A stretch of 64,000 nucleotides of DNA from Convolutriloba macropyga (taxonomy: Eukaryota). A program made the position numbers and the translations under genes. The stretch covers positions 20,336,001-20,400,000 of the forward strand of contig NC_134478.1 of NCBI RefSeq assembly GCF_964194025.1, read 5' to 3'. The stretch's first letter is position 1, and each line of letters starts with the position of its first letter. This document shows positions 22,101-34,975 of the stretch, in pieces. The notes beneath the pieces are model-generated. The model was not told where the DNA came from, ran no database searches, and worked only from the letters and a program-made list of their open reading frames with translations.

Positions 22101-23378
22101 TATTCAACCCGTATGATAGACTCCTGCATAATGATCGAGATTATGATCTTTCTCACGACATCCCTTAAATCGTATACATCATCCATGTTCTATGACTACC
22201 AGGATTTTCGCCAGGTAGTCAACTCGCGGTAGAGTGCAATTATTAATTCACAGTGACTCAGGCAATAAGAAACATATCGCAAAGTCCTCTTTGGTATTCC
22301 TTTCACGAATTGTTCAGTGAGTCACTGTCTGCTTTTTTAAATTAATTTAAAATTGTGGAGGTTGTTCACAGCCGCAATTCATCAATTTTGTTTTCAAAAA
22401 CTTCGTGAGAGAAAAATCTTTCAGTAAAAACATAGCGGCAAATTTTACCAGCTTAGATTTTGCTTCATTATACTAAATTTTCAAAAGCAGTTTTGAGAAC
22501 ATAGCTACTAATAAAAAACGGTTAGCGGACTATGATGTCCCAAAAATTCTAATAACAATTTTCATTTTGTAGTTATGCTCTCAAAACTGCTTTGAGAAGT
22601 GTGTATCATTGATTTTAATAAGCAAATAATGGCTAGCGGATTTTGATGTCCCGAAAATTGTAAACTTTTATCTACTCTCAATCAGTCCCGCCTAATTTTG
22701 TACGAAGCAGTTTGATAAATGTACAAAATCGGAGAGATTATTGAAATTAACAGAACATCAAGCTGCTGAGAGTTGAACGTGAGTTTTATCTGTTCATATG
22801 CACAGCGTATAGACGGCCGACCGTGATTGTAATTTTATTTTGAGTTTGAGTTGTTTTTTAATTGTAAGTACATTCAATTAAAAAGCTTTGAACGCTCGTA
22901 TTTCATCGTCAATTTTGGCTGTTATTTATACGCCAGCTCTCGGCATAGAAATCGAGATGCAATTTTGTAAATGAATTCTTTTTTATCTCCAGACCTTCTC
23001 TGCATCTCAAAGCCATCTAATTCTACAGCATGTCGGATAGACGTTCATATGGCCCGGTAAAACCTAAATCATTGTTTGAGCAAAAATTATTAACAATTAT
23101 ATTTACATCTATTACAGGTATTTATCATCATAATATCTAGCTCATTCACTCACTCACTCACTCACACACTGACACTTCACAAAAACGCACACTCCCTTAT
23201 CGAGAGTTTGACCACATTAAAATTGTCATTGTTGATAAATAAGGTTTTGTTTAATTAAAATTGCGTTTTCGTTAGCGTATTAATATCGTCAGCATGTTCG
23301 GTTTTAAAACCTCAATTAAAATCTTTGGTATGTTCTCTTTTAAACGAAAGAAACTTTTGGCATATTTGCTTTGAAATA

Positions 23379-23858
23379 TGTTATACTCGATTGCGATAGA
23401 TTGTTCCAATCGAGTCGCGAATGCTTATAGTTCAAATCAGTTTCAGCAGTTCAATGGCACTTCAATAAACTACAATTAGAATTTCTAATTGTCAACTTGG
23501 CTAATCGCGGTAAGATTGGCGCTATTCTATTTGACTGAGTCCGATTGAAGAACAAATTACTAGATTTTAATTAGAACTGATGTTCAGCAGTGCAAATTAC
23601 CGAATGATTAAATTAAAGTACAATTTAGGAAATGAAAGTTTTGTTCATAACATAATCACAAGACAGGAAGGAACTGCAAGATTTGTTTATAAGCTGAACA
23701 GACAGTTTCATGCACAGACAGCATGAACAGACAAGAAGTGATGAAGATTTGGATGATGTGAAATTAAACTAAATAACACTAGCACTTGCCCTTCAAATGG
23801 GTAAAACTGAACTGAATACGGTTAAGGATGTATGATGGTTTATCCATACCGTGTGACA
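23379..23858 (-). repeat. 3' LTR of the Gypsy element
   Basis: Direct repeat of 29963-30448 (offset ~6590). Begins TGTCAC after the PPT and ends TATAACA. Confidence 0.95.
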
Positions 23859-23990
23859 TTTCCCCCTGTTGGGAGAAAAGAAAATTAGTTGGTAAAATCA
23901 GAAAATTAATTAATATTCACCGGTTACATAAGTAATAAAAAATTAAATAATATGTAAAATATAAAGAGTTCATAGAGTTTCAATGAGTTT

Positions 23991-25462
23991 CTAATCGGAT
24001 TCTGAGTTCTCTTCATTTTCTGCCTGCAAGACCGTCATTTCTCTTGGGAGATTTGGGTTCGGGTCTGCTGTCCAACTTTCGTTAGGGTTTCGTGGCGAAA
24101 CATGTCCAATAAAGTCACTAATAGACTCAGGGATTTCCGTTGAATACCCTTCTGTATTTTGAATTTTCTCCATCAACGACTGTGATGACTTCTTTCGTTC
24201 AAGAGTCCTTTTGCTCTTTCTCACGGAAGACGTATCGGAATCAGACGTATCGCTTATAGTTAACTGTCGTTTGCTTGTTTTCCGTAAAATTGGAGTGGGT
24301 ATTTGCAGAGAAGCCATTTGTACCGCGGATGACCCAGCTTCATTTGGATTAAGCGGTGGCGGCGCAATTGGAGCAGGTGGGCTGAAATGTAGTTTTTGAG
24401 TAAGATCAGGTCTATTGATGAAAGCTTCGTCATGTTTTGGATTGCGCTTCGGGATTTTCATTTTTAGAGATCGTGCCTTATTACCAGCTGAAGAGATACA
24501 AGATCTTCCTGAAGATAGCCCACTAATATCATCCGCCTGTTTTCTATTTCTCTGGATCTTTTTGTCCCCGGTGTTTTTTCTTATTAAGTCTCGTCTATGT
24601 TGGTTGATTTTCTGCTCGTTCGTTTTTTTTTGTATATCTTCTTTGCTCTTCTCTCTCTGTACAGTGTAAGCTTCGTATCTCGTTCTGCTCTTGTGCCAAA
24701 CTTCGCGATATCCGAATTTCGTACCCCAACTTCTTGTCCATTCGGCTCTTTAATGACGCTCGTGGTCGGGCTGACTTTGCACACTGTACTTCCTGGAGCA
24801 ACCACCTCGTAAAATCGAGATTCTTCTTTTGTCGCTGGCTTTCGTGTATTTTTCTGGCTAGTTTTAATTGGGTGCTTTTTTCCGAAAACGGAATTGGCCT
24901 GAAAACTCCTTCTGATTTTTATCAATCGTTGCTCTCCGTCTTTCATTTTCTCCTCTTCTTTTCTTGCGCGGGCATTTGCGGCACAGATAACTTTCTCAAT
25001 CTCAGTGTCCGAAGAAAGAGCTGTATCTGCCCATTATTCCTCCGTTAAATACGAACGGCCTGGTATCGTGTCTTCATCTAAATAATGTTTAATTATTTTC
25101 TTATAATTTAGATTTTTGTTATTAGGTTTAGTGGTGATGTTAGAAATAGTTGTATTACATTTTCTACCAAAGTGGGCTTCGAATGGTGTGATGTCTATTG
25201 TTTTTTGTTTTAAAATTCTCAGTCGTTTTATAATTGCATATAGTGAATTTTCTAAGTTAAATTTTTCGTTTAGTTGTGTTTTCATGCAAGATAATTGTCG
25301 TTTAATTGTTTTAATAAGGCGTTCTACTAGACCAATTGCTCTATGATCGTTTGCTGGTGCAAGTATAGGTGTAATGTTATTTTCTATATAGAATGTTTCA
25401 AACTTTTTTCCTGTAAAACATCTAGCTTGATCTAATCTAACTGTTCTAAGTACCCCGTGATT

Positions 25463-25528
<66 letters not shown>

Positions 25529-28500
25529 TTATATATATTTTTAGGAATTTGATTACATTTGTACCGGAGGCGTTATTGACTATTTCTGCTGTGGGATATT
25601 TTGATTATCTTGTACTTGTAATGAAATTACAAGTAAGGAATTACTACACTTGTAATGAAATATTGTTCTATGCCTTTTTCATTAAGTATTAGTCCACCAA
25701 AGTCTATTTGTATTTCGTCATTCGGTTCGACGCATTTTGGTAAAGGTGCCCATTTGCGGTGCGAAACCTTTGATTTAAGATTCTTACTAATTTCTGTGCA
25801 AGCTTTGCACTCACTGGCTTTTGCCAGTATATCCCAATGGATATACGGCCACCAAATGTTCTGCGGAAGTGAAGGCATGGCAAAACTCCCGGGTTGCGTC
25901 GAATGTATATCCTCAAGTACTGCGTCATTTATGGCTTTCGGGGTTGATATTCGATCGTCAAGACAGACACAGCCATGTTTCAAACTAAGATCACGCCAAT
26001 AGGAGAAAAGGTAGGGAATTATTTCTCGAAGTCTGTCGGGGTCATCTCGAATTACGCAGTCTCTCACCTCCTTGAGAATCGCGTCTCTCCCAGTTAGTAT
26101 GGCCAAAAGCTTTCTGCTAAATGTTTTATTTAGCGTTTTGGTGAAGTAGATGTCATCTGCTTCCTCAATCAAACTGCCTGATGGGGTCTCGGTGTTAGAG
26201 GAGGTATGTGTGCCGGGTGTGGAAAGAGTTGTATCAGAGAATGTTACTCTTGCCTTTGTTGGGGTAGATTTTGATCGAGTAGCTTTAGTTTTAGGCATTT
26301 TGTTGATAGGGTTGACTGATTTACTTGTGTGAAGCGATTTGATAGAATTAATCAAAGTTAAGTGAGTTGTGGATCTATTTTGGGAAAAAAGCGAGCGATT
26401 CTTGTGCGAGTGGTATTTATACTTTGGAATTTTGTGTTTTCGCGCTTAATTTAGTAATTTTAGGTGGATTATTTGTCTTAATACCATTAATGAGCTTTAT
26501 TGGGTATAATTGTTCAGAGTGTTCACATTCATTACTGTCTGACATTTCCACCTCTTTTGCAGCAAATTCGTTAATGGAATGTGAACTATTCACTTTACAG
26601 TTATTTAGTACAAATTGTGATTTTCTAACTTTAAGAGGTATTTGCGATGCGAAAGGAGGATTTAAATGCGGATCAACTATTGAATTTGATAGTGTTAATT
26701 GCGACGCGAATTGTACTTTCTTTTGAGAAAGCAGTAATTGTGGTGCAAGTGGTTTAGTACTAATTTTTGAATTAATATTTTGTGGTGTATGCATTTGCGG
26801 TGCAAATGACTGTTCTGAATGAAATGAAGGCGAATGTAACTTTAATATGCTATTAAATTTTTGTAATGTGTTCTGTTTTTTTAATTAGAGGTTTCAATGA
26901 GTTGCGAATTTCAAATTATGTTGTTATTACAAAGTGTTTGTCATATGTAGATATTTTTTAGCTCTTCCGAATGAGTTTGTAGATATGTAGTCTACTAAAC
27001 CCATTTTTGCTCCCGGCATCTGTTTAATTGTGAAGTTGTACGGAAGTAATATATCTATCCATCTAGATAGTCAACTATTGTACGATTTGTTCGATCTGTG
27101 CTCTTTTAGAATGTACAATAGTGCTCGATGGTCCGTTACTAGAAAAAATTGCCAAATAGGTAGTATTTGAAATAGTCAATTGGCCAGACTATTCCCAATA
27201 GATCTAGTTCGTTAACACTGTAGCGTTCTTCTGTTGAGTTGAGAAATCGTGACGCAAATGCTATCGGTTTCCAACCTTCGGATGTAGTTTGCTGTACCCA
27301 ATCCAGAAAGTGAGGCGTCACACTTAACTCGAACATCGAATTTTGGATTGTAATGGCTATTTTCTGTGCTGTTGGCAATTTTTTCTTTGATTAAATTAAA
27401 ATGTTAGGTGTGTTCTTCCGTCCAAACAAATTTTATGGATTTTTTGAGAAGTGGTCAAAGTGGATGGCATAATTGTGCTAAGTGTGGTATAAATTTACCA
27501 ATATAATGTACTGACACGAGAAAGGATCGGAGACGTTTTAGTGTTGTTGGTGGTGGCATTGTTAATATTGCTGTTAATATTGCTAGTTTTGCTTTCTGAC
27601 GGTGATAATCCAGTCTGTGTAAACTTATATCCTAACCTTTGAATTTTCGTTTTTGCAAAATGGCATTTTTGAAGATTTACTCTTAAATTATCTTCGTCTA
27701 ATTTTTTAAGCATTTTGTAACATATGCCAAATGATCTATTTCAGTGCCGGTACTAACGATTATGATGTCGTCTAAGAAGCAATAGTTGTTTTGTAAACCT
27801 ACTAAAGTGTATTCCATTGCTTTCTGAAAATCTTACGGCATATCAGTAAAACCGTAGAATCCAGTTTTGAATCTATAGGTCCGGTGGATTCCCCACAGAT
27901 AATGTTGAAATTACAGTGTTTTGCGGTGTCATGGTGGAGTTTTAATTGACTATATGCATATGTTAGGTCTAACGTGGTGAAATTTGCCTGTTGGCTATTT
28001 TGGGTGTTAGTAAGATGTTGTGATATTGTATCAATTAAAATGTCAATGTTGGGCATTTGATATTTGTTTTTGTGTATTCCTTTATTTAGTACTTTAGAAT
28101 CTAATGCTAGTTTTATAGATTGGAAAGCATCAGAAAGGTCGGCGCGTTCGTCAGAGTAACTAGATAGTTTTTCGATATGACCTTCCCTCTGTAAGCGTTC
28201 TAATTCCGCCGTGACTCTAGGTTGGAGATTTATTGGAACTCGCCGACCTTTCTGATGCTTTGCTGAGAACTTTTGATGAAATTTTGATTTCGCTACATGT
28301 GTCTCTGAAAAACCAATTCTATAACTAAAATGTAGAAATTGCACCGCGATTGTCTCTTTAATGTTACATGTAAAATTATTAATGTCATTGACACATTTAC
28401 CATTTTTTGGTTGTTGTTGCTGTACAACTGCAAGACCGGGGCTTGTGAAGAACTCTCTGACAATGATGATTTTGTGACCGTCTTCGACCACTGTCAGACT

Positions 28501-28799
28501 GGCTTCTCTGTCTATCCAATTATTGTATGCAACCGTTGTCTCAAGATGTCCGAGGACTTTTATCGGCTCATTGGAGAATGTTTTTAGGTCCCTCTTTACC
28601 CTCTTAAGATTCCATTTCGCAGATTGTGTAGTTCGAATTATTTGATTTGCTGATGTTTTCGTTATGAGATTAACAGCTCTTCCAGAGTCAATCATAGCGT
28701 TTGCTTTTATTTCTCCGAATTGTGTTTTGACGTTTAGAGGTTCGAGCTGATTTGCCGAATCATATGAGATTGGCGCCACATAGTCGTCAGAGTCATAAT
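23991..28799 (-). pseudogene. Gypsy pol (protease, RT, RNase H, integrase, C-terminal extension), disrupted
   Basis: Protease AMIDSG (~28690). RT YQMPNID, FTTLDLTYAYSQL and YCFLDDII (~27760-27785). RNase H WKPIAFASRFLN..YSVNEL...TDHRAL. Integrase H..H..WWP..C..C, IQIDFGG, VRLDQARCF and HRAIGLVERLIKTIKR. Confidence 0.93.
25462..25537. repeat. (AT)n microsatellite inside the Gypsy integrase
   Basis: Near-perfect AT run. It produces the YIYIYI start of ORF 25034-25528. Confidence 0.95.
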
Positions 28800-29963
28800 T
28801 CGAATCGTATACTTGCTCGTAGTATAGTTTCCGATAACTAATTATGTAGTTAAGGGATTCCTCGTCGTCACTTTTTTCGGGAGACTTATCAATTTGATTG
28901 ACGTTTGTTTGCGGGGCTTTATGTGTTTGTCCCTGTGATCGTTTTGGCTTTCGACATTTTCTCCTAAAATGGCCAGTTATTCCACAATTATTACTCTTTT
29001 TTCCATTTGCGGGTTAAATCTGTCGATGATTGTGACTCCATCGTAGGCCGCAATTCATACAGATGCTGCTGTATTGGTAGTTTTGGGGCACAGTTGGGTA
29101 TCGCGTGAAATCTCGTTTGGGTTGTTGGGCACTCGCGTTGCAATTGCGTGTCTGGTAATTGTTGACTACATTTACTGAGTTTGTAGTTGACATCAAATTC
29201 TGATTAATCTTTTGCTGATTTTGTGTCCCCATCTCCATCTGGATTGCTATTTCGAGCGCTTTGGATGGTTCAACTGTTTCCTTGAACAACTCCTTTTGGG
29301 TTTCATGATCTATCATGTTTAGTATGAAAGCATCTCGATTTAGGGTAGTTTCCTCACTTCCTAGACTACAGTTTTCTGCTTGTTCTATTAAACGACCATA
29401 GAAACTTTCAACAGATTCACCTTTCTGTTGTTTATAAGAGTAGAAGACAAAGCGTTCGCAAGTTATATTTCTCAATTTTGTAAAGGAGTCCTCCATTGCT
29501 TGCCATAGTTTTTAAATGGCTCTTTTTCTATTTGAAAGTGATGATGTTTGCTATTAATTATACGTCGTCCCTCCGTTCCAAATCTCAAATACAACAAAGA
29601 TATCGATTTTTGCTCACAGATCCCCCAAGGTTTATCTCCGCACAAGATACCGATTTGCTCAATCTTTTTGCAACAAAATTGCCAAATTACCATGAATTGT
29701 TTGTTACGGATTTTTCTATCCCTTTCCGTCGCTTGCGTGTGTTTTTCCACTGGTTCCTCGTAAGTTGGCTCGGGTGGATTTGTTACCGCTGTTGGTGGAT
29801 CGTTTAGAAGGTTATCGAGTCGAATTCCTTCTTTTGCTAGCAACGCTAGCTTCCACTGTTGAGTACACTTATCCCACGTCAATGAAGGGGTGGCAGTAGG
29901 CTTCTCCCAAAATGCATCTACATGAAGAGGCGTCTTCTTTGATTCAGCTGCTGACTGCGCCAT
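28800..29963 (-). pseudogene. Gypsy gag (frameshifted) with two zinc knuckles
   Basis: ORFs 29472-29993 and 29014-29496 (ERFVFYSYKQQKGESVESFYGRL..AENC). Knuckles CMNCG..H...*P and NNCGITGHFRRKC (~29060-28950). Confidence 0.9.
29948..29962 (-). promoter_or_regulatory. Primer-binding site complementary to the 3' end of tRNA-Ser
   Basis: Minus strand TGGCGCAGTCAGCAG. The plus strand ctgctgactgcgcca matches the 3' end of invertebrate tRNA-Ser (..CCTGCTGACTGCG-CCA) as recalled from known sequences. Confidence 0.8.
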
Positions 29964-30448
29964 ATTATACTCGATTGCGACAGATTGATCCAATCGAGTC
30001 GCAAATGCTTATAGTTCAAATCATTCTCGGCAGTTGCGCCACAAATGGCACTTCAATAACTACAATTAGATTTTCTAATTGCCAAGTTGGCTAATCGAAG
30101 TGCGATTGGCGCTATTCTATTTCACTGAGTCCGATTGAAGAGCGAATTACTAGATTTTAATTAGAACTGATTTTCAGCAGTGAAAATTACCGAATGATTA
30201 AATTAAAGTACATTTTAGGAAAAGAAAGTTTTGTTCATAACATAATCACAAGACAGGAAAGAACTGCAAGATGGTATTATAAGCTGAACAGACAGTTTCC
30301 TGCACAGACAGAATGAACAGACAAGAAATGATGAAGATTTGGATGAAATGAAATTAAACTAAATAACACTAGCACTTGCCCTTCAAATGGGTAAAACTGA
30401 ACTGAACACGGTTATGGATATATGATGGTTTATCCATACCGTATGACA
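29963..30448 (-). repeat. 5' LTR of the Gypsy element
   Basis: Begins TGTCATACGG, ends TATAATA, and is immediately followed by the PBS. Confidence 0.95.
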
Positions 30449-31475
30449 AAATATAAGAAAGTGTTGCTATAATCAAACTTAAACGCATGAAACCGTCACA
30501 GGAATCCGTTTTTCAATAGTACGTTTGGTTTTGATCGCAGCAACGTTATGTATTCTGACTCTCTGGCTCATGTTTGAGCTTCGGCTTTTATGTCTGGACC
30601 ACCTGCAACCCAAGTTCTTCTGGCCGAGACCTGTCTTGGATACCGAACTTCAGCCTGAGTAGAGAATGAGTAAAATCTTACCTGTTAGAGGGTAGAGAGA
30701 ACAACCTAAAGTAAATTACTAATATCTTTCTTCTTTAATTTTTAGGCCGAGCACTTAAAACTCTTTGGAGTGGTGAATTACGGTTTTCTTCTCTTTAAAA
30801 CGACGAAATGATCTCAAAAATTTCATCTCTTTCTTTCTCTCTCTTATAAACTAAGAGCCTTCAGAAAGTTACCTTTGTAATATGTATTCATTGAATATTT
30901 ATCTGGATTCAACATAAACATATATGGGCATTGAGTGCAATAGTTTACAGCTTTGAAAAATTAACAACAAATATACATGTATAATTTAGAGGTACGATTG
31001 AAGAAACGTAACTTAAAATGACAAAATGTCTATTAGCTCTATGGCCATCAAAACAATCATTTTAGGACTACCTGGTATGCCTGACAGGATATCACAAGGA
31101 TATAACTCCTTGATATCCAACAATATGGCTAACTTTTTCGCTTACATCAGTTTCTTTTAAAAATTAAATGACCATAAACAGCTACAAATATATGTCATTA
31201 CACCAATTTACGACAGTTTAATTGAGTCCAAAAGTCTTAACAAATAGTAATGAATGATTTTTAGAACTTTCAAATAAAGAAGGATAGACATTTTTTCAAA
31301 TGAACAACTAACACATTGACTTCTTCGAAGTCGTTAATGGAGTTAAGTTTTTGTATTACAGGCATACATGAGCTCCACTCTATGAGTTTTTCCTCCGTTT
31401 CAATATCAGGGGCTCCAAAATTGTTTTCCGATTTGGAAGTTTGCATGACAACATTTGCTCGCTTTTCTCAATTAA

Positions 31476-31493
31476 CTCTCTTTCTCGTTCTCT

Positions 31494-31546
<53 letters not shown>
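31476..31546. repeat. (CT)n microsatellite
   Basis: Imperfect CT run. It gives rise to the spurious ERER/SLSL ORFs. Confidence 0.9.
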
Positions 31547-31639
31547 CAGCTTTTATTCGAACGTGACTTCTGTCAATTATAAGCATTGGTTTGTCTGGAT
31601 CTTTGTTTATCGAACTTCAAAGTTTTGGACTAAACGACG

Positions 31640-32900
31640 TGCAGAGCTAAATCTGTGATAAGGATACATGCATAGTAAGCGCAAGGTCAATGCAACTATG
31701 AATGATACCACTCCCATCAGCAGTGCGTAATTAAACGCCATAGAGCTCTCAAAGTTGTCACCCAAAACGTCATTTGATAGGCGATGTACTTGGCTATTTT
31801 TGCAAAATTTTCCGTTATTCTCCTTGAAGGCATTTTGATCATTTTTTCTTGTATTTGTATAATAAGAGTAGGACTGGCCTGACTTTATTGTTGAATCATG
31901 GAATTTGGTCTATGTCTGGCACTTCAGTCAATAAATATTTGAGAGGGCCAGAAAATTCTACTTGATCTTTAATTAATGGAATCTTCTGACAGCTTCATAG
32001 GTTAGATCTAAATTTCAAATGCCGAGTTGTGTTTTGCTTGCCACATTCTAAAGTGATAAGAGTTATTTGGCAACCTCGCTAATTTCTGATCTTGAGAGCG
32101 TTTGAACAATCCATTCAACTCTCGCATGGTATATGTGTCCGTTGCTGACAATATTAACCAGATTCCTTATCCTAGGTTTTCTGCAGCCTCTATTTTAGGT
32201 GCCTCTTCTGCTGACCCTAAAAAAATTTTCGGTTTGACAAGATAATAACGCATTCATGTTTGTTTCGAAAAAGAGTTCGGCTAAGCATGAAGAGTGTCCC
32301 AATTCCGCTGGAAAAATCTCATGACAAGTTCTGTGCTGGGAAATTCCTAAACAGTTTCCTAGTTGATCTTTGAATAGCCCTGTTTTTTCCATAGAGTACT
32401 CTGATACGGCTAAGTTTGGCCTCTTTTTTCCATCTAATTGCAATTCAAGTGTCCTCTTGTGGCATTTGCGGTACAGTTTTTGCGGCACAAAACTGTGAAG
32501 GTCTCGACAAGATGCGAACGGGATTGCGAGGGTTAAAAATAGTCCTTCCCTAATCGATCCACCAATAGTTTTGCTTTGTAGTAAGACAAGAGATCATCCA
32601 TGCAATTTGCTGGGGTCAATCGGCCAAGAGCATTCATTTGTTCGCGAGCACTTTGTCTAGAATTTTCATTAGGGAATCTCGCGGTACAAAGGACATCTGT
32701 AATCTTTTCTGTAACAATGTTGGTATTGAGTTAAGTAGATAGATTCATGTAATATACTGTAAGTGCAGCTCTATTGTGCTTGTCATCTGAATTTATCATG
32801 TTGCTCAACGATGCCGCAGTGTCAAAATTAAACTTTATTTGCTGGTTTGAAAGAATTCATTGATCACAATACTGGAGCAATCTAATGTTTTTGTTGAAAA
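31640..32900 (-). pseudogene. Decayed env-like type I membrane glycoprotein (putative fusion protein)
   Basis: The minus-strand translation across stops and frameshifts gives a Cys-rich ectodomain (NLAVSEYSMEKTGLFKDQLGNCLGISQHRTCHEIF..GHSSCLAELFF..ALLSCQTE; NLG*GIWLILSA; GCQITLITLECGKQ..FRSNL*SCQKIP). A C-terminal hydrophobic helix YALLMGVVSFIVALTLRLLCMYPYHRF follows (~31730-31650), just upstream of the 3' LTR. Confidence 0.6.
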
Positions 32901-34072
32901 TTTCGAACTGCCCTCTATTTATTCCCCTGTTTTTTTTTGGTTCTCGATAAGTTCATTTTGAATCTGAATAAATGATCTTATTTTTACTATGCTGTAAACT
33001 ATTGTACTCAATGCCCATATATGTTTCTGTTGAATCCGGATATATATTTAGTGAAAACACATATCAAAAGTAACTTACTGAAAGCTATTAATAAGAGAGA
33101 GAGAGAGAGAGAAAATAAAGACTTGAGAACAGTTGTTTGTTTTTAAGAGAAGAAAACCGTGATCCCACTCTGTCACCAATTAATATTTTTCTTCTCTAAT
33201 TTTTAGACTGAACTCTTAAGGCTCTTCGGAGTGTTGGATCACAGTTTTCTTCTCTTAAAAACTAACAACGTTTCTCAGGACCTTATTCTCTCTCTATCTC
33301 TCTCTCTCACACTCTCTTATTATTAATATCTTTCAGTAAGTTACTTTTGTTATTTGTATTCAATAAATATTTAACCGGATTCAACCGAAAAATATATTGA
33401 GCACAACAGAAATATATATTCAACAGAAATATATATTGGGTATTGAGCACAATAGTTTACAGCAGAACGAATTTAACAACAAGTAAACCTGTATAGTTCA
33501 AATGTACTGCTTAAAAAACGTAACTTAAAACAACAAAATATTTTTAGCTCTATGGCCATCAAAACAATCCTTTTTAGTACTACCTGATATTCAAGGATAT
33601 CACAAAATTGTGCATAAGTTATGCTTGACGCTACTTGACGAGAAGCTCTTCTTTTTCAACGTATACTTGGCTAGAGTGTTGAATCCTCGAAGGAAGAAGA
33701 AGACAGAAGACTAGACTGAGTTAAAAAAGATGCCCAAATTCGAGATGTGAAGACGTGGTGCTGTAATAGTTAGCACACAAGGATTGCGAGTAAAAAATTA
33801 TCAAATCCTCTACTTCTCCAATTTCATGTTACGCCTGATTAGACCCCCCTACATTAGCAACTGTTCGGGTACATTAACTCAATACTATCTTCCAAACATA
33901 GGGCAACTAAGATGAACTGGACCGATAATTGACAACTGAAGATGAAACTTACCTACTCCTAATCATACCAACAATTCTTTAGAATTGGAAAAATATATCG
34001 GCCGGGCTGTTTTTGTTCCTCAGTAACGTCCACAACACCTTTTTTTATTTTTTCGGAAGTTAAGAGGGGTAC

Positions 34073-34975
34073 CATTCCAGGTTGAATTTTTCTGCCCAAA
34101 ATGACGTAAGAAGGAGGCTGCAATGGGAGGATTTTTTAGGAAAATGCAGCTCAAAACTCTTACATTTTTTTGGGCTGCATTGGGCTTCAAACAGGGGTAA
34201 AATGATGTAAGAGTGAGGGGGTAATGGAGAAATTACCCCCGAACTCTTACATCGTTTTATCTCCCTTGACAGACCAAAAAGATGTAAGAGTGGGGGGTTA
34301 ATTTGTCTTTTACCCCATCACTCTTACCCCATTTTACCCCCCTTGAACGCCAATGAAGCCCAAAAAGATGCAAGAGTTTTGAGCTGTATTTTCCTAAAAA
34401 ATCCTCTCATTGCAGCCCCACTCTTACATCATTTTACCCCCTCAATCTTACGTTGTTTAAACGCCCATACCTGAAGACTGCCAGCCCTGGACCCAGAACC
34501 TCTGTACCATGAGCTGCGTCGCCTTAACCTCCAGACCATCAATGCTTGTTCAACTCTTGATAGTCTATATATTCGAATAATACTTGTTAGAATTGCCCCC
34601 TCTCAACAAATTACCCCCACACTCTTACATCAATTTACCCCCTTAGAACAAATTACCCCCTCACTCTTACACCATTTTACCCTCCTTTGCAGCTCAACTC
34701 TAGCTCATTTTAACCCCCTCTGGACAAATTACCCCCTCACTCTTACACCATTTTACCCTCCTTTGCAGCTCAACTCTAGCTCATTTTAACCCCCTCTGGA
34801 CAAATTACCCCTTCACTCTTACACCATTTTACCCCCCTTGGCAGCCCAGCTCTTACATCATTTTACAACCTCTGAACAAATTACCCCTTCACTCTTACAC
34901 CGTTTTACCCCCCTGGCAGCCCCCCCTCTGACAACAAAATGGCAGGATTTTAGGGAGGACATTCGACCCGGGATG
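34073..34975. mobile_element. Non-autonomous TIR/foldback-type DNA element with internal palindrome and minisatellite
   Basis: Imperfect ~30-bp TIRs (cattccaggttgaatttttctgcccaaaat / attttagggaggacattcgacccgggatg). ~340-bp imperfect palindrome at 34098-34435. 76-bp tandem units at 34648, 34724 and 34800, all built on the motif ctcttacatcattttacccc. Confidence 0.7.

Follow-up and report, generated by a model that had tools for sequence, protein, structure and literature searches.

A dead env-only insertion in Convolutriloba macropyga and its env-bearing Ty3/gypsy parent clade with a predicted, exchangeable enzyme cassette

We analyzed a 64,000-nucleotide stretch of the Convolutriloba macropyga genome (RefSeq assembly GCF_964194025.1, contig NC_134478.1, positions 20,336,001 to 20,400,000 of the forward strand; hereafter the window), in which an earlier note, made from the letters alone, had described the remnant of a long terminal repeat (LTR) element carrying an env-like gene but no gag or pol. 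What the earlier note had noticed is a genuine env-only insertion, dead and found once: an element of a familiar kind, probably produced by an error of a familiar kind. Its relatives form a large env-bearing Ty3/gypsy clade in the same genome, and it is the accessory cassette of these parents, rather than the window copy, that is biologically unusual. What is new, as read from sequence, is a complex env-bearing Ty3/gypsy clade with an exchangeable enzyme cassette of predicted function.

A DNA search of the genome with the env remnant returned 21 matches, 10 of which were other near-full-length copies at 77-81% identity. A 200-residue env query gave 1766 genome candidates; the 150 that were scored were 54-100% identical, many of them in long open frames. 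Gag and pol frames lay upstream of 13 of 17 env loci, while one of the remaining loci had gag further up, one had Macro and JmjC pieces only, and two had nothing within 10 kb. The earlier note's expectation that the genome hosts an env-bearing Gypsy lineage was thus borne out, and the intact gag-pol-env parents it proposed to look for were found, with 5-bp target-site duplications at the siblings. Parent pol encodes protease (PR), a weak dUTPase-like match (E 0.007), reverse transcriptase (RT), ribonuclease H (RH) and integrase (IN), and matches the Pfam families RVT_1, RT_RNaseH, Integrase_H2C2 and rve in that order. The closest solved RT is that of Ty3 (E 2.4e-26), RH and IN are bridged by about 210 residues, and gag carries a CCHC knuckle. 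Sibling LTR pairs are 94% to 99.7% identical. Trees built separately from integrase and from env for 26 loci (out of 30, four were dropped for short matches, and the env tree was a quick one only) agree in their main groups. These results support an env-carrying Ty3/gypsy clade with complete gag-pol-env members; the window copy itself lacks gag and pol, and its env is broken and missing the 5' third. The pol-env gap of the parents, about 3.4 kb, holds Macro and an antisense cassette, giving a predicted layout of LTR-gag-PR-(dUTPase-like)-RT-RH-IN-Macro-[antisense spliced JmjC or OTU-like gene plus small membrane protein]-env-LTR. Other siblings show later tandem duplications and deletions; at L028, L025, L030 and L033 the JmjC region is multiplied by tandem duplication within single elements, with about 11 copies in the element at C2:27.1 Mb.

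In siblings whose env frame is open, the protein has a signal-like start and an RKKR sequence, after which comes a hydrophobic peptide rich in Gly; long helices, a part rich in Cys and a membrane helix are also present. Searches with the env sequence alone found no Pfam family and no single-sequence PDB match, and in a profile search of PDB nothing stronger appeared than weak matches to coiled coils and to haemagglutinin HA2, at E 0.005 or worse; PF12259 was found on 3 of 117 env homologs. We used a structure model of a naturally open sibling frame (103 sequences; predicted local distance difference test score, pLDDT, 75; predicted template-modelling score 0.60). Foldseek matched this model to the F proteins of respiratory syncytial virus (RSV), Nipah virus and parainfluenza virus in PDB, with a best E of 1.2e-6 for RSV F at template-modelling scores of only 0.2-0.3. 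In BFVD it matched nucleopolyhedrovirus F (E 2.4e-18) and invertebrate RNA-virus glycoproteins. Both the earlier note's proposed relationship to baculovirus F and the structural comparison it suggested came out in favor of an F-type (class I) fusion protein akin to baculovirus and pneumovirus F, an assignment supported by the model.

The decayed, Cys-rich reading frame with a C-terminal hydrophobic helix that the earlier note had seen in the window is indeed a remnant of this env. It has 13 frame-changing indels and 7 stop codons over 455 compared codons, and its differences per codon position are 0.17/0.14/0.19, as against 0.027/0.015/0.061 for two young siblings. This decay, spread evenly over codon positions, indicates a dead sequence without past selection. 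The remnant begins at about residue 236 of 770, so the window copy has no signal peptide, no furin site and no fusion peptide; its tail holds an expanded GA repeat. Domestication of the env piece by the host as a membrane-protein gene, for which a 100-codon open frame including the membrane helix might speak, is hardly credible given the indels, the stops and the lack of codon-position bias, which refute the case for the ectodomain.

In the parents, pol is followed by a Macro-like frame (E 0.001, under the cut-off) and then by an antisense frame of about 205 residues with 83 genome matches. At 20 divergent loci of this frame, integrase lay upstream in all 20 and Macro in 16, and env lay downstream in 19. 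Its JmjC signature is well kept: the HxD motif and second histidine are present in all 18 open frames (17 of 29 loci), and the co-substrate lysine is nearly invariant. The top eight PDB matches of the JmjC profile were PHF2, KDM7A and PHF8 (E 1.5e-6 to 6.3e-5), followed by JMJD6 (E 0.08); Atlas placed it with JmjC clusters at 0.94, and the recognition value fell short of the bar set there. Sixteen of the 18 open frames start directly after TTTAG. In the three lineages fully read out, the JmjC frame is preceded, at a distance of 70-80 bases, by a short coding stretch that is conserved and ends in GTAAG. Together these features predict a spliced gene, with a product of about 250-270 residues. 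An antisense intron would stay in the genomic RNA, which would explain its survival through reverse transcription. The window copy's lineage carries a predicted KDM7-like JmjC gene in its parents, a cassette that the window copy has lost. No JmjC relatives were found in JGI metagenome or IMG/VR contigs. Matches to the cassette profile also included many stand-alone JmjC-like proteins of 200-300 residues with basic tails (P0207-P0251; E 1e-17 to 1e-4).

Between lineages the synonymous sites of JmjC are at or near saturation (proportion of nonsynonymous differences, pN, 0.12-0.52). For the two between-lineage pairs that were closest without being saturated, omega was 0.08 and 0.12; five distant pairs gave 0.26-0.47. 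By these estimates the cassette JmjC is under purifying selection, with its predicted metal ligands intact. Several results count against such a conserved KDM7-like gene. No open JmjC frame of 150 residues was found at 12 of the 29 loci, Pfam scores for JmjC were at or under the cut-offs for most members, and one near-identical pair gave an omega of 0.85. The large JmjC exon that was scanned matched JmjC and cupin families only, with no PHD, CXXC or JHD domain, and its structure model was poor (pLDDT 45).

The most likely role of the cassette JmjC, which we advance tentatively and short of calling it probable, would be to strip repressive histone methyl marks and so counter silencing. It is a distinct possibility that the gene encodes a real enzyme that leaves repressive chromatin alone and acts on something other than histones (RNA, a defence protein of the host, or proteins of the element itself), or that its product works without catalysis. 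The weak scores, the lack of a visible histone-reading PHD and JMJD6 as the next PDB match would fit such a role, as would the second JmjC type described below, which has HxE ligands and finds no solved relative. Viruses also use Macro and OTU-like domains against immune signalling. However, the nearest cellular proteins combine PHD, JmjC and JHD (5 of the 8 longest among 87 profile matches to the cassette JmjC), and an anti-silencing role has been proposed for the KDM4-like JmjC of endogenised giant viruses, as described in part of PMC11244446.

The cassette moves between backbones. Two sub-lineages are 97% identical in integrase and 95% in env, yet only 60% in JmjC and 39% in a small membrane open reading frame (ORF), and the JmjC label changes at least three times on the integrase tree; this mismatch shows that the cassette is exchanged. 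Among 20 further env loci, the same JmjC was present at 1, a second HxE type at 5, a degenerate JmjC at 1, zinc-finger/OTU-like cargo at 10, and cargo that was left unassigned at 3. In sister lineages the slot is taken by two other kinds of cargo. The second JmjC-like cargo (L140, L141, L144, L145, L146) has HxE..H ligands in one long frame, clusters in Atlas at 0.97, and gave an 81% profile match to the first type. The multi-exon cargo (L137-L139, L142, L143, L148, L150, L153-L155) combines an H..H/CxxC zinc-finger-like part with OTU-like Cys and His motifs. Against an OTU profile built from the same genome, its Cys exon reached 86% probability over only 23 columns and its His exon 13%, while the middle exon and two controls stayed below 1%. 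This cargo had no Pfam or PDB match, its loci are absent from the genome's 27 PF02338 matches, and no longer homologs of the OTU-like exon were found. OTU domains also occur within dispersed open frames of about 2500 residues (G000:C4:51.23-51.25 Mb, C2:35.7 Mb, C10:43.2-43.6 Mb, C807), which are probably another mobile element family.

Just before env lies a small antisense ORF of about 75-125 residues with a CCxNG[ST] motif, a third Cys and a membrane helix (L041, L045, L071, L017, L084, L138-L155). The motif was present, in any frame, at 36 of 46 loci, and the ORF had no family match. It loosely resembles sORF2/FAST proteins as presented in part of PMC11952523 and differs in being antisense. 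Taken together, this could be a recently active clade with a fixed slot for erasers of host marks, namely Macro (for ADP-ribose) plus an exchangeable antisense gene (the spliced KDM7-like JmjC, the second JmjC or the OTU-like cargo as a putative deubiquitinase) next to the conserved small membrane protein. These genes would undo the element's own silencing and be swapped between lineages in the manner of an arms race. We regard this as a plausible but still speculative interpretation.

The window insertion retains the frame of a normal provirus around an abnormal interior (Table 1). On the minus strand it runs from the target duplication AATTT through the 5' LTR, a copy of a tRNA-Leu end, an inverted LTR piece, about 16 bases, the env remnant, the 3' untranslated region (UTR) and the 3' LTR to the second AATTT. 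The earlier note had correctly seen two LTR-like direct repeats, which are 69% identical in a gapped blastn alignment and 79% over 373 ungapped columns, and had overlooked the inverted LTR copy of about 185 bases. It was also right that gag and pol are missing from the element; no gag, pol, Macro or JmjC of the parent clade was found anywhere in the window. Contigs from three public runs of one study cross the internal junctions with 0 differences, the tRNA/inversion junction in X2 and X4 and the inversion/env junction in X1, X2 and X4, so the structure is no assembly artefact. A chimera of the assembly was accordingly ruled out by these bridges and by arms that differ by about 15%. A Penelope/DIRS or DNA-transposon reading of the inverted repeat fell once the 5-bp duplication and complete parents bounded by LTRs were known. 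At paralogs of the flanking repeat, contigs connect both flanks without the element.

Table 1. Features of the env-only insertion (positions are those of the window).
Feature	Position	Strand	Basis
5-bp target-site duplication AATTT, 5' side	33605..33609	-	identical five bases at 30713-30717; family makes 5-bp duplications
5' LTR, TGTGA..TTAAT, with internal duplication of ~40 bases	33179..33604	-	73-84% to 11 family LTR copies, ungapped columns
Copy of host tRNA-Leu 3' end including CCA, 17/18 bases, one G missing	33162..33178	-	reads TGGTGACAGAGTGGGAT
Inverted copy of inner part of LTR, ~185 bases	32983..33165	+	83-91% to family LTRs
~16 bases at LTR/env junction	32967..32982	.	LTR likeness stops at 32983, env likeness from 32966
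Dead 3' two-thirds of F-type env, ~residues 236-770 of sibling	31312..32966	-	tblastn E 1e-129 to sibling env
Predicted transmembrane helix of env, within the piece shown by the ORF track	31664..31723	-	translation; corresponds to helix 648-675 in sibling env model
3' UTR, decayed purine tract, small duplications at LTR start	31097..31311	-	window sequence vs siblings
3' LTR, TGTGA..TTAGT	30718..31096	-	71-82% to family LTRs
5-bp target-site duplication AATTT, 3' side	30713..30717	-	copy of 33605-33609

The LTR ends in the window copy's lineage are TGTGA..TAGT and those of a sister lineage AGTCA..TAGT. The earlier note had read the ends as AGTTA..TAATT; its TAATT runs into the duplication AATTT, and its AGTTA sits in a small duplication before the 3' LTR, where sibling elements have the A-rich GAGGGAGCTAG. 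Host tRNA-Leu genes (AAG, CAG) terminate in ATCCCACTCCTGTCA, without CCA, and the tRNA-Leu 3' end pattern has 174 genome matches; tandem arrays of these genes lie at G000:C11:45.16-45.22 Mb and C1:80.69-80.73 Mb. The tRNA-Leu identity that the earlier note gave the primer site stood up against these genes, but not the overlap with the LTR: sibling 3' LTRs stop at TAGT, TGG follows directly after the 5' LTRs, and the site abuts. Target duplications of siblings are 5 bp (6 of 8 scored were perfect and 2 of 8 had one mismatch; 2 further loci were unscored), with CTTAA and ATACA as further examples in the family. The ends, the abutting primer site and the 5-bp duplication all disagree with the hallmarks of insect errantiviruses, to which the earlier note had likened the element. 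At distinct gag-bearing sibling junctions the match to the tRNA-Leu end is only 9-10 bases in 8 of 8 cases. The window matches 17 of 18 bases, stops at base 18 and contains the non-genomic CCA, a tract absent from all eight.

This long tRNA copy and the fold-back point to a failed second strand transfer, and we consider it probable that the window copy was made by such a one-off error of reverse transcription. In normal replication, synthesis of the plus-strand strong-stop DNA runs 18 bases into the primer tRNA, and the product then anneals to the minus-strand primer site, as outlined in part of PMC12657518. Here the strong-stop DNA would have copied 18 tRNA-Leu bases, of which the family primer site pairs with 9-10 only, leaving the last 8-9 bases presumably unpaired. 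This tail would have folded back onto a look-alike site in its own LTR, GGAGTGG pairing with CCACTCC and, beyond a bulge of 2 bases, GAT pairing as well, and would so have primed the inverted LTR copy. The strand would next have jumped to the minus strand within env, so that gag, pol and the accessory genes were lost together with the 5' third of env. Because both LTR ends are normal, integrase would have inserted the product, which has decayed since. The LTR does contain a look-alike site, ATCCACCACTCC. When a natural LTR-tRNA locus was folded, GGAGTGG of the tail paired with CCACTCC in both the minimum-energy and the centroid structure, and the inverted piece begins at this predicted pairing site. 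Priming after the 2-base bulge predicts a GAT-CACGG junction, and the window shows GAT-CACGG.

A pattern search for an LTR end followed by the 18-base tRNA copy gave 6 matches at 4 loci, all aberrant. One (L128; G000:C9:5046300-5050300, minus) is a second env-only element, from a sister lineage, with an exact 18-base tRNA-Leu copy and a jump into env. It consists of LTR, tRNA copy and 3' part of env twice in tandem, then a third LTR, with the duplication ACAAT. Another (L129; G000:C8:62240489-62242900) has an LTR with 43 tRNA-Leu bases, followed by the antisense of the env 5' end and cassette, and continues into the 3' UTR and LTR, partly repeated. The last two (L130, C4:27.83 Mb; L131, C11:38.59 Mb) belong to other LTR families and join an LTR and an 18-base tRNA-Leu copy to inverted LTR pieces; the two LTRs of L130 are 100% identical.

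Other observations argue against a failed strand transfer. The fold-back stem in the natural LTR-tRNA locus is no stabler than in shuffled sequences (z -0.27), and the predicted fold of the decayed window sequence does not contain it. No run contig among the rows listed bridges the junction of L128. The tRNA tract could alternatively be a 10-base primer site joined to an inverted LTR with a 2-base deletion, the LTR site being tRNA-like. Finally, 5 changes are common to the 5' LTR and the inverted piece and absent from the 3' LTR (3 at a microsatellite edge, 2 clean), compared with 0 common to the two LTRs only and 1 to the inversion and the 3' LTR. Copies from one reverse transcription should share none unless the arms later corrected each other, and these changes could reflect either such correction or a later DNA-level event.

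The latter would be a deletion in a normally inserted full-length provirus, with a fold-back inverted duplication by replication template switching. The two clean changes confined to the 5' LTR and inverted piece agree with this, as do the age of the copy, seen in its diverged LTR pair, and the later duplications and deletions in siblings. We nevertheless find it improbable, because the primer site is precisely where the break falls, tRNA bases absent from all eight sibling junctions are present there, and the pattern of LTR, tRNA copy and jump is repeated at four other loci. Still less likely, to the point of being very doubtful, is the non-autonomous env-only family suggested by the earlier note, to be mobilised by the enzymes of complete elements. 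The LTRs, primer site and target duplication are present, and L128 shows that a second env-only element exists in the sister lineage. However, the window junction occurs once in 1.18 Gb at 2 mismatches, and is also single in the DNA search, so the window element represents no env-only family; L128 has a different junction at one locus, and the window env lacks its 5' third and has decayed evenly across codon positions. A failed strand transfer remains our preferred origin for the window copy.

The element is embedded in a high-copy repeat (flanks 33616-33700 and 30600-30712), with a run depth above 20000 on the 5' flank. It is adjoined at 34098-34914 by an array of 34/42-base units that includes inverted copies. 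A separate decayed Gypsy-like element with gag and pol pieces, and no env seen, occupies 23378-30448; its LTRs (23378-23858 and 29962-30448) are 91% identical.

If this origin is right, the window copy is, together with the four other loci, a record of a strand-transfer error already familiar from human immunodeficiency virus (HIV), and env-only elements can arise in one step without selection. The parents bear on a wider question. How animal retrotransposons resist heterochromatin is, to our knowledge, largely open, and the known transposon-borne counter-silencers are the plant VANC proteins and, as a proposal, the TET enzymes of fungal DNA transposons. An env-bearing LTR clade that apparently keeps a JmjC gene under selection, in a slot fixed in place but exchangeable in content, would allow a direct biochemical test of retrotransposon-encoded anti-silencing. 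The predicted antisense, spliced accessory genes would also amount to retrovirus-like complexity outside the retroviruses.

Insect errantiviruses have AGT..ATT LTR ends, a primer site that overlaps the LTR end, a 4-bp target duplication and a gag without knuckles. The lineage described here differs from them in its TGT..TAGT ends, abutting primer site, 5-bp duplication, CCHC-knuckle gag and weak dUTPase-like match in pol. It shares with gypsy, ZAM, 17.6 and Idefix an F-type env beside the 3' LTR and a right end that departs from TG..CA. The sister lineage here starts with AGT, and a tRNA-Leu primer is also used in some insect clades according to the available text of PMC13524379. In that paper, Chary and Hayashi describe 'ancient errantiviruses', Ty3/gypsy elements that carry an F-type env, as widespread in animals. 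As far as its main text describes them, these elements resemble ours in their LTR-gag-pol-env order, Ty3-like pol, tRNA primer site, recent multi-copy insertions, and an env of the F type in which a signal peptide, a furin site, a fusion peptide and a membrane helix are all present. Ours differ in the pol-env gap of about 3.4 kb with Macro and the predicted antisense spliced cassette. The words macro, JmjC, dUTPase, antisense and accessory are absent from the main text of PMC13524379, where the initial filter tolerated a pol-env distance of 1000 bases.

For the window copy, the closest parallel is with defective HIV-1 proviruses whose deletion junctions carry 7-54 bases of inserted tRNA sequence, explained in the available portion of PMC12657518 by delayed second-strand transfer. 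Both have a copy of the tRNA primer after the 5' LTR and a downstream jump that deletes 5' genes, whereas the window copy is fixed in the germ line and contains, in addition, an inversion by fold-back. Failed transfers may be more frequent in this family owing to its short primer site.

The cassette JmjC is like the KDM7 family (PHF8, KDM7A, PHF2) in its HxD..H ligands, GxK-motif lysine and best profile matches. It is unlike them in showing no PHD or JHD, in its predicted length and in lying antisense within an LTR element. The KDM4-like JmjC genes carried by endogenised giant viruses, proposed to counter silencing, are likewise stand-alone, intron-containing and part of a mobile element, so far as PMC11244446 covers them in the portion available. 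No title or abstract in the literature searched, whose coverage leaves out subscription journals and Repbase Reports, described an LTR-encoded JmjC. Extra genes are known from other LTR elements: antisense ORFs (aORFs) of unknown function in the plant and fungal elements Grande, RIRE2, Retand and Boty, those of plants without clear homologs (PMC7264820), ORF3 and dUTPase in rotifer elements (PMC5408684), and extra ORFs in Burro elements (PMC6431247). TET/JBP enzymes occur in fungal DNA transposons, with none found in retrotransposons (PMC12730594). The available parts of these four papers name no JmjC, Macro or OTU-like slot between pol and env. On the same partial texts, the parent clade shares with the extra-ORF elements conserved genes after pol, some of them antisense, and a dUTPase between PR and RT, and with the TET/JBP transposons a predicted transposon-borne dioxygenase proposed to counter silencing.

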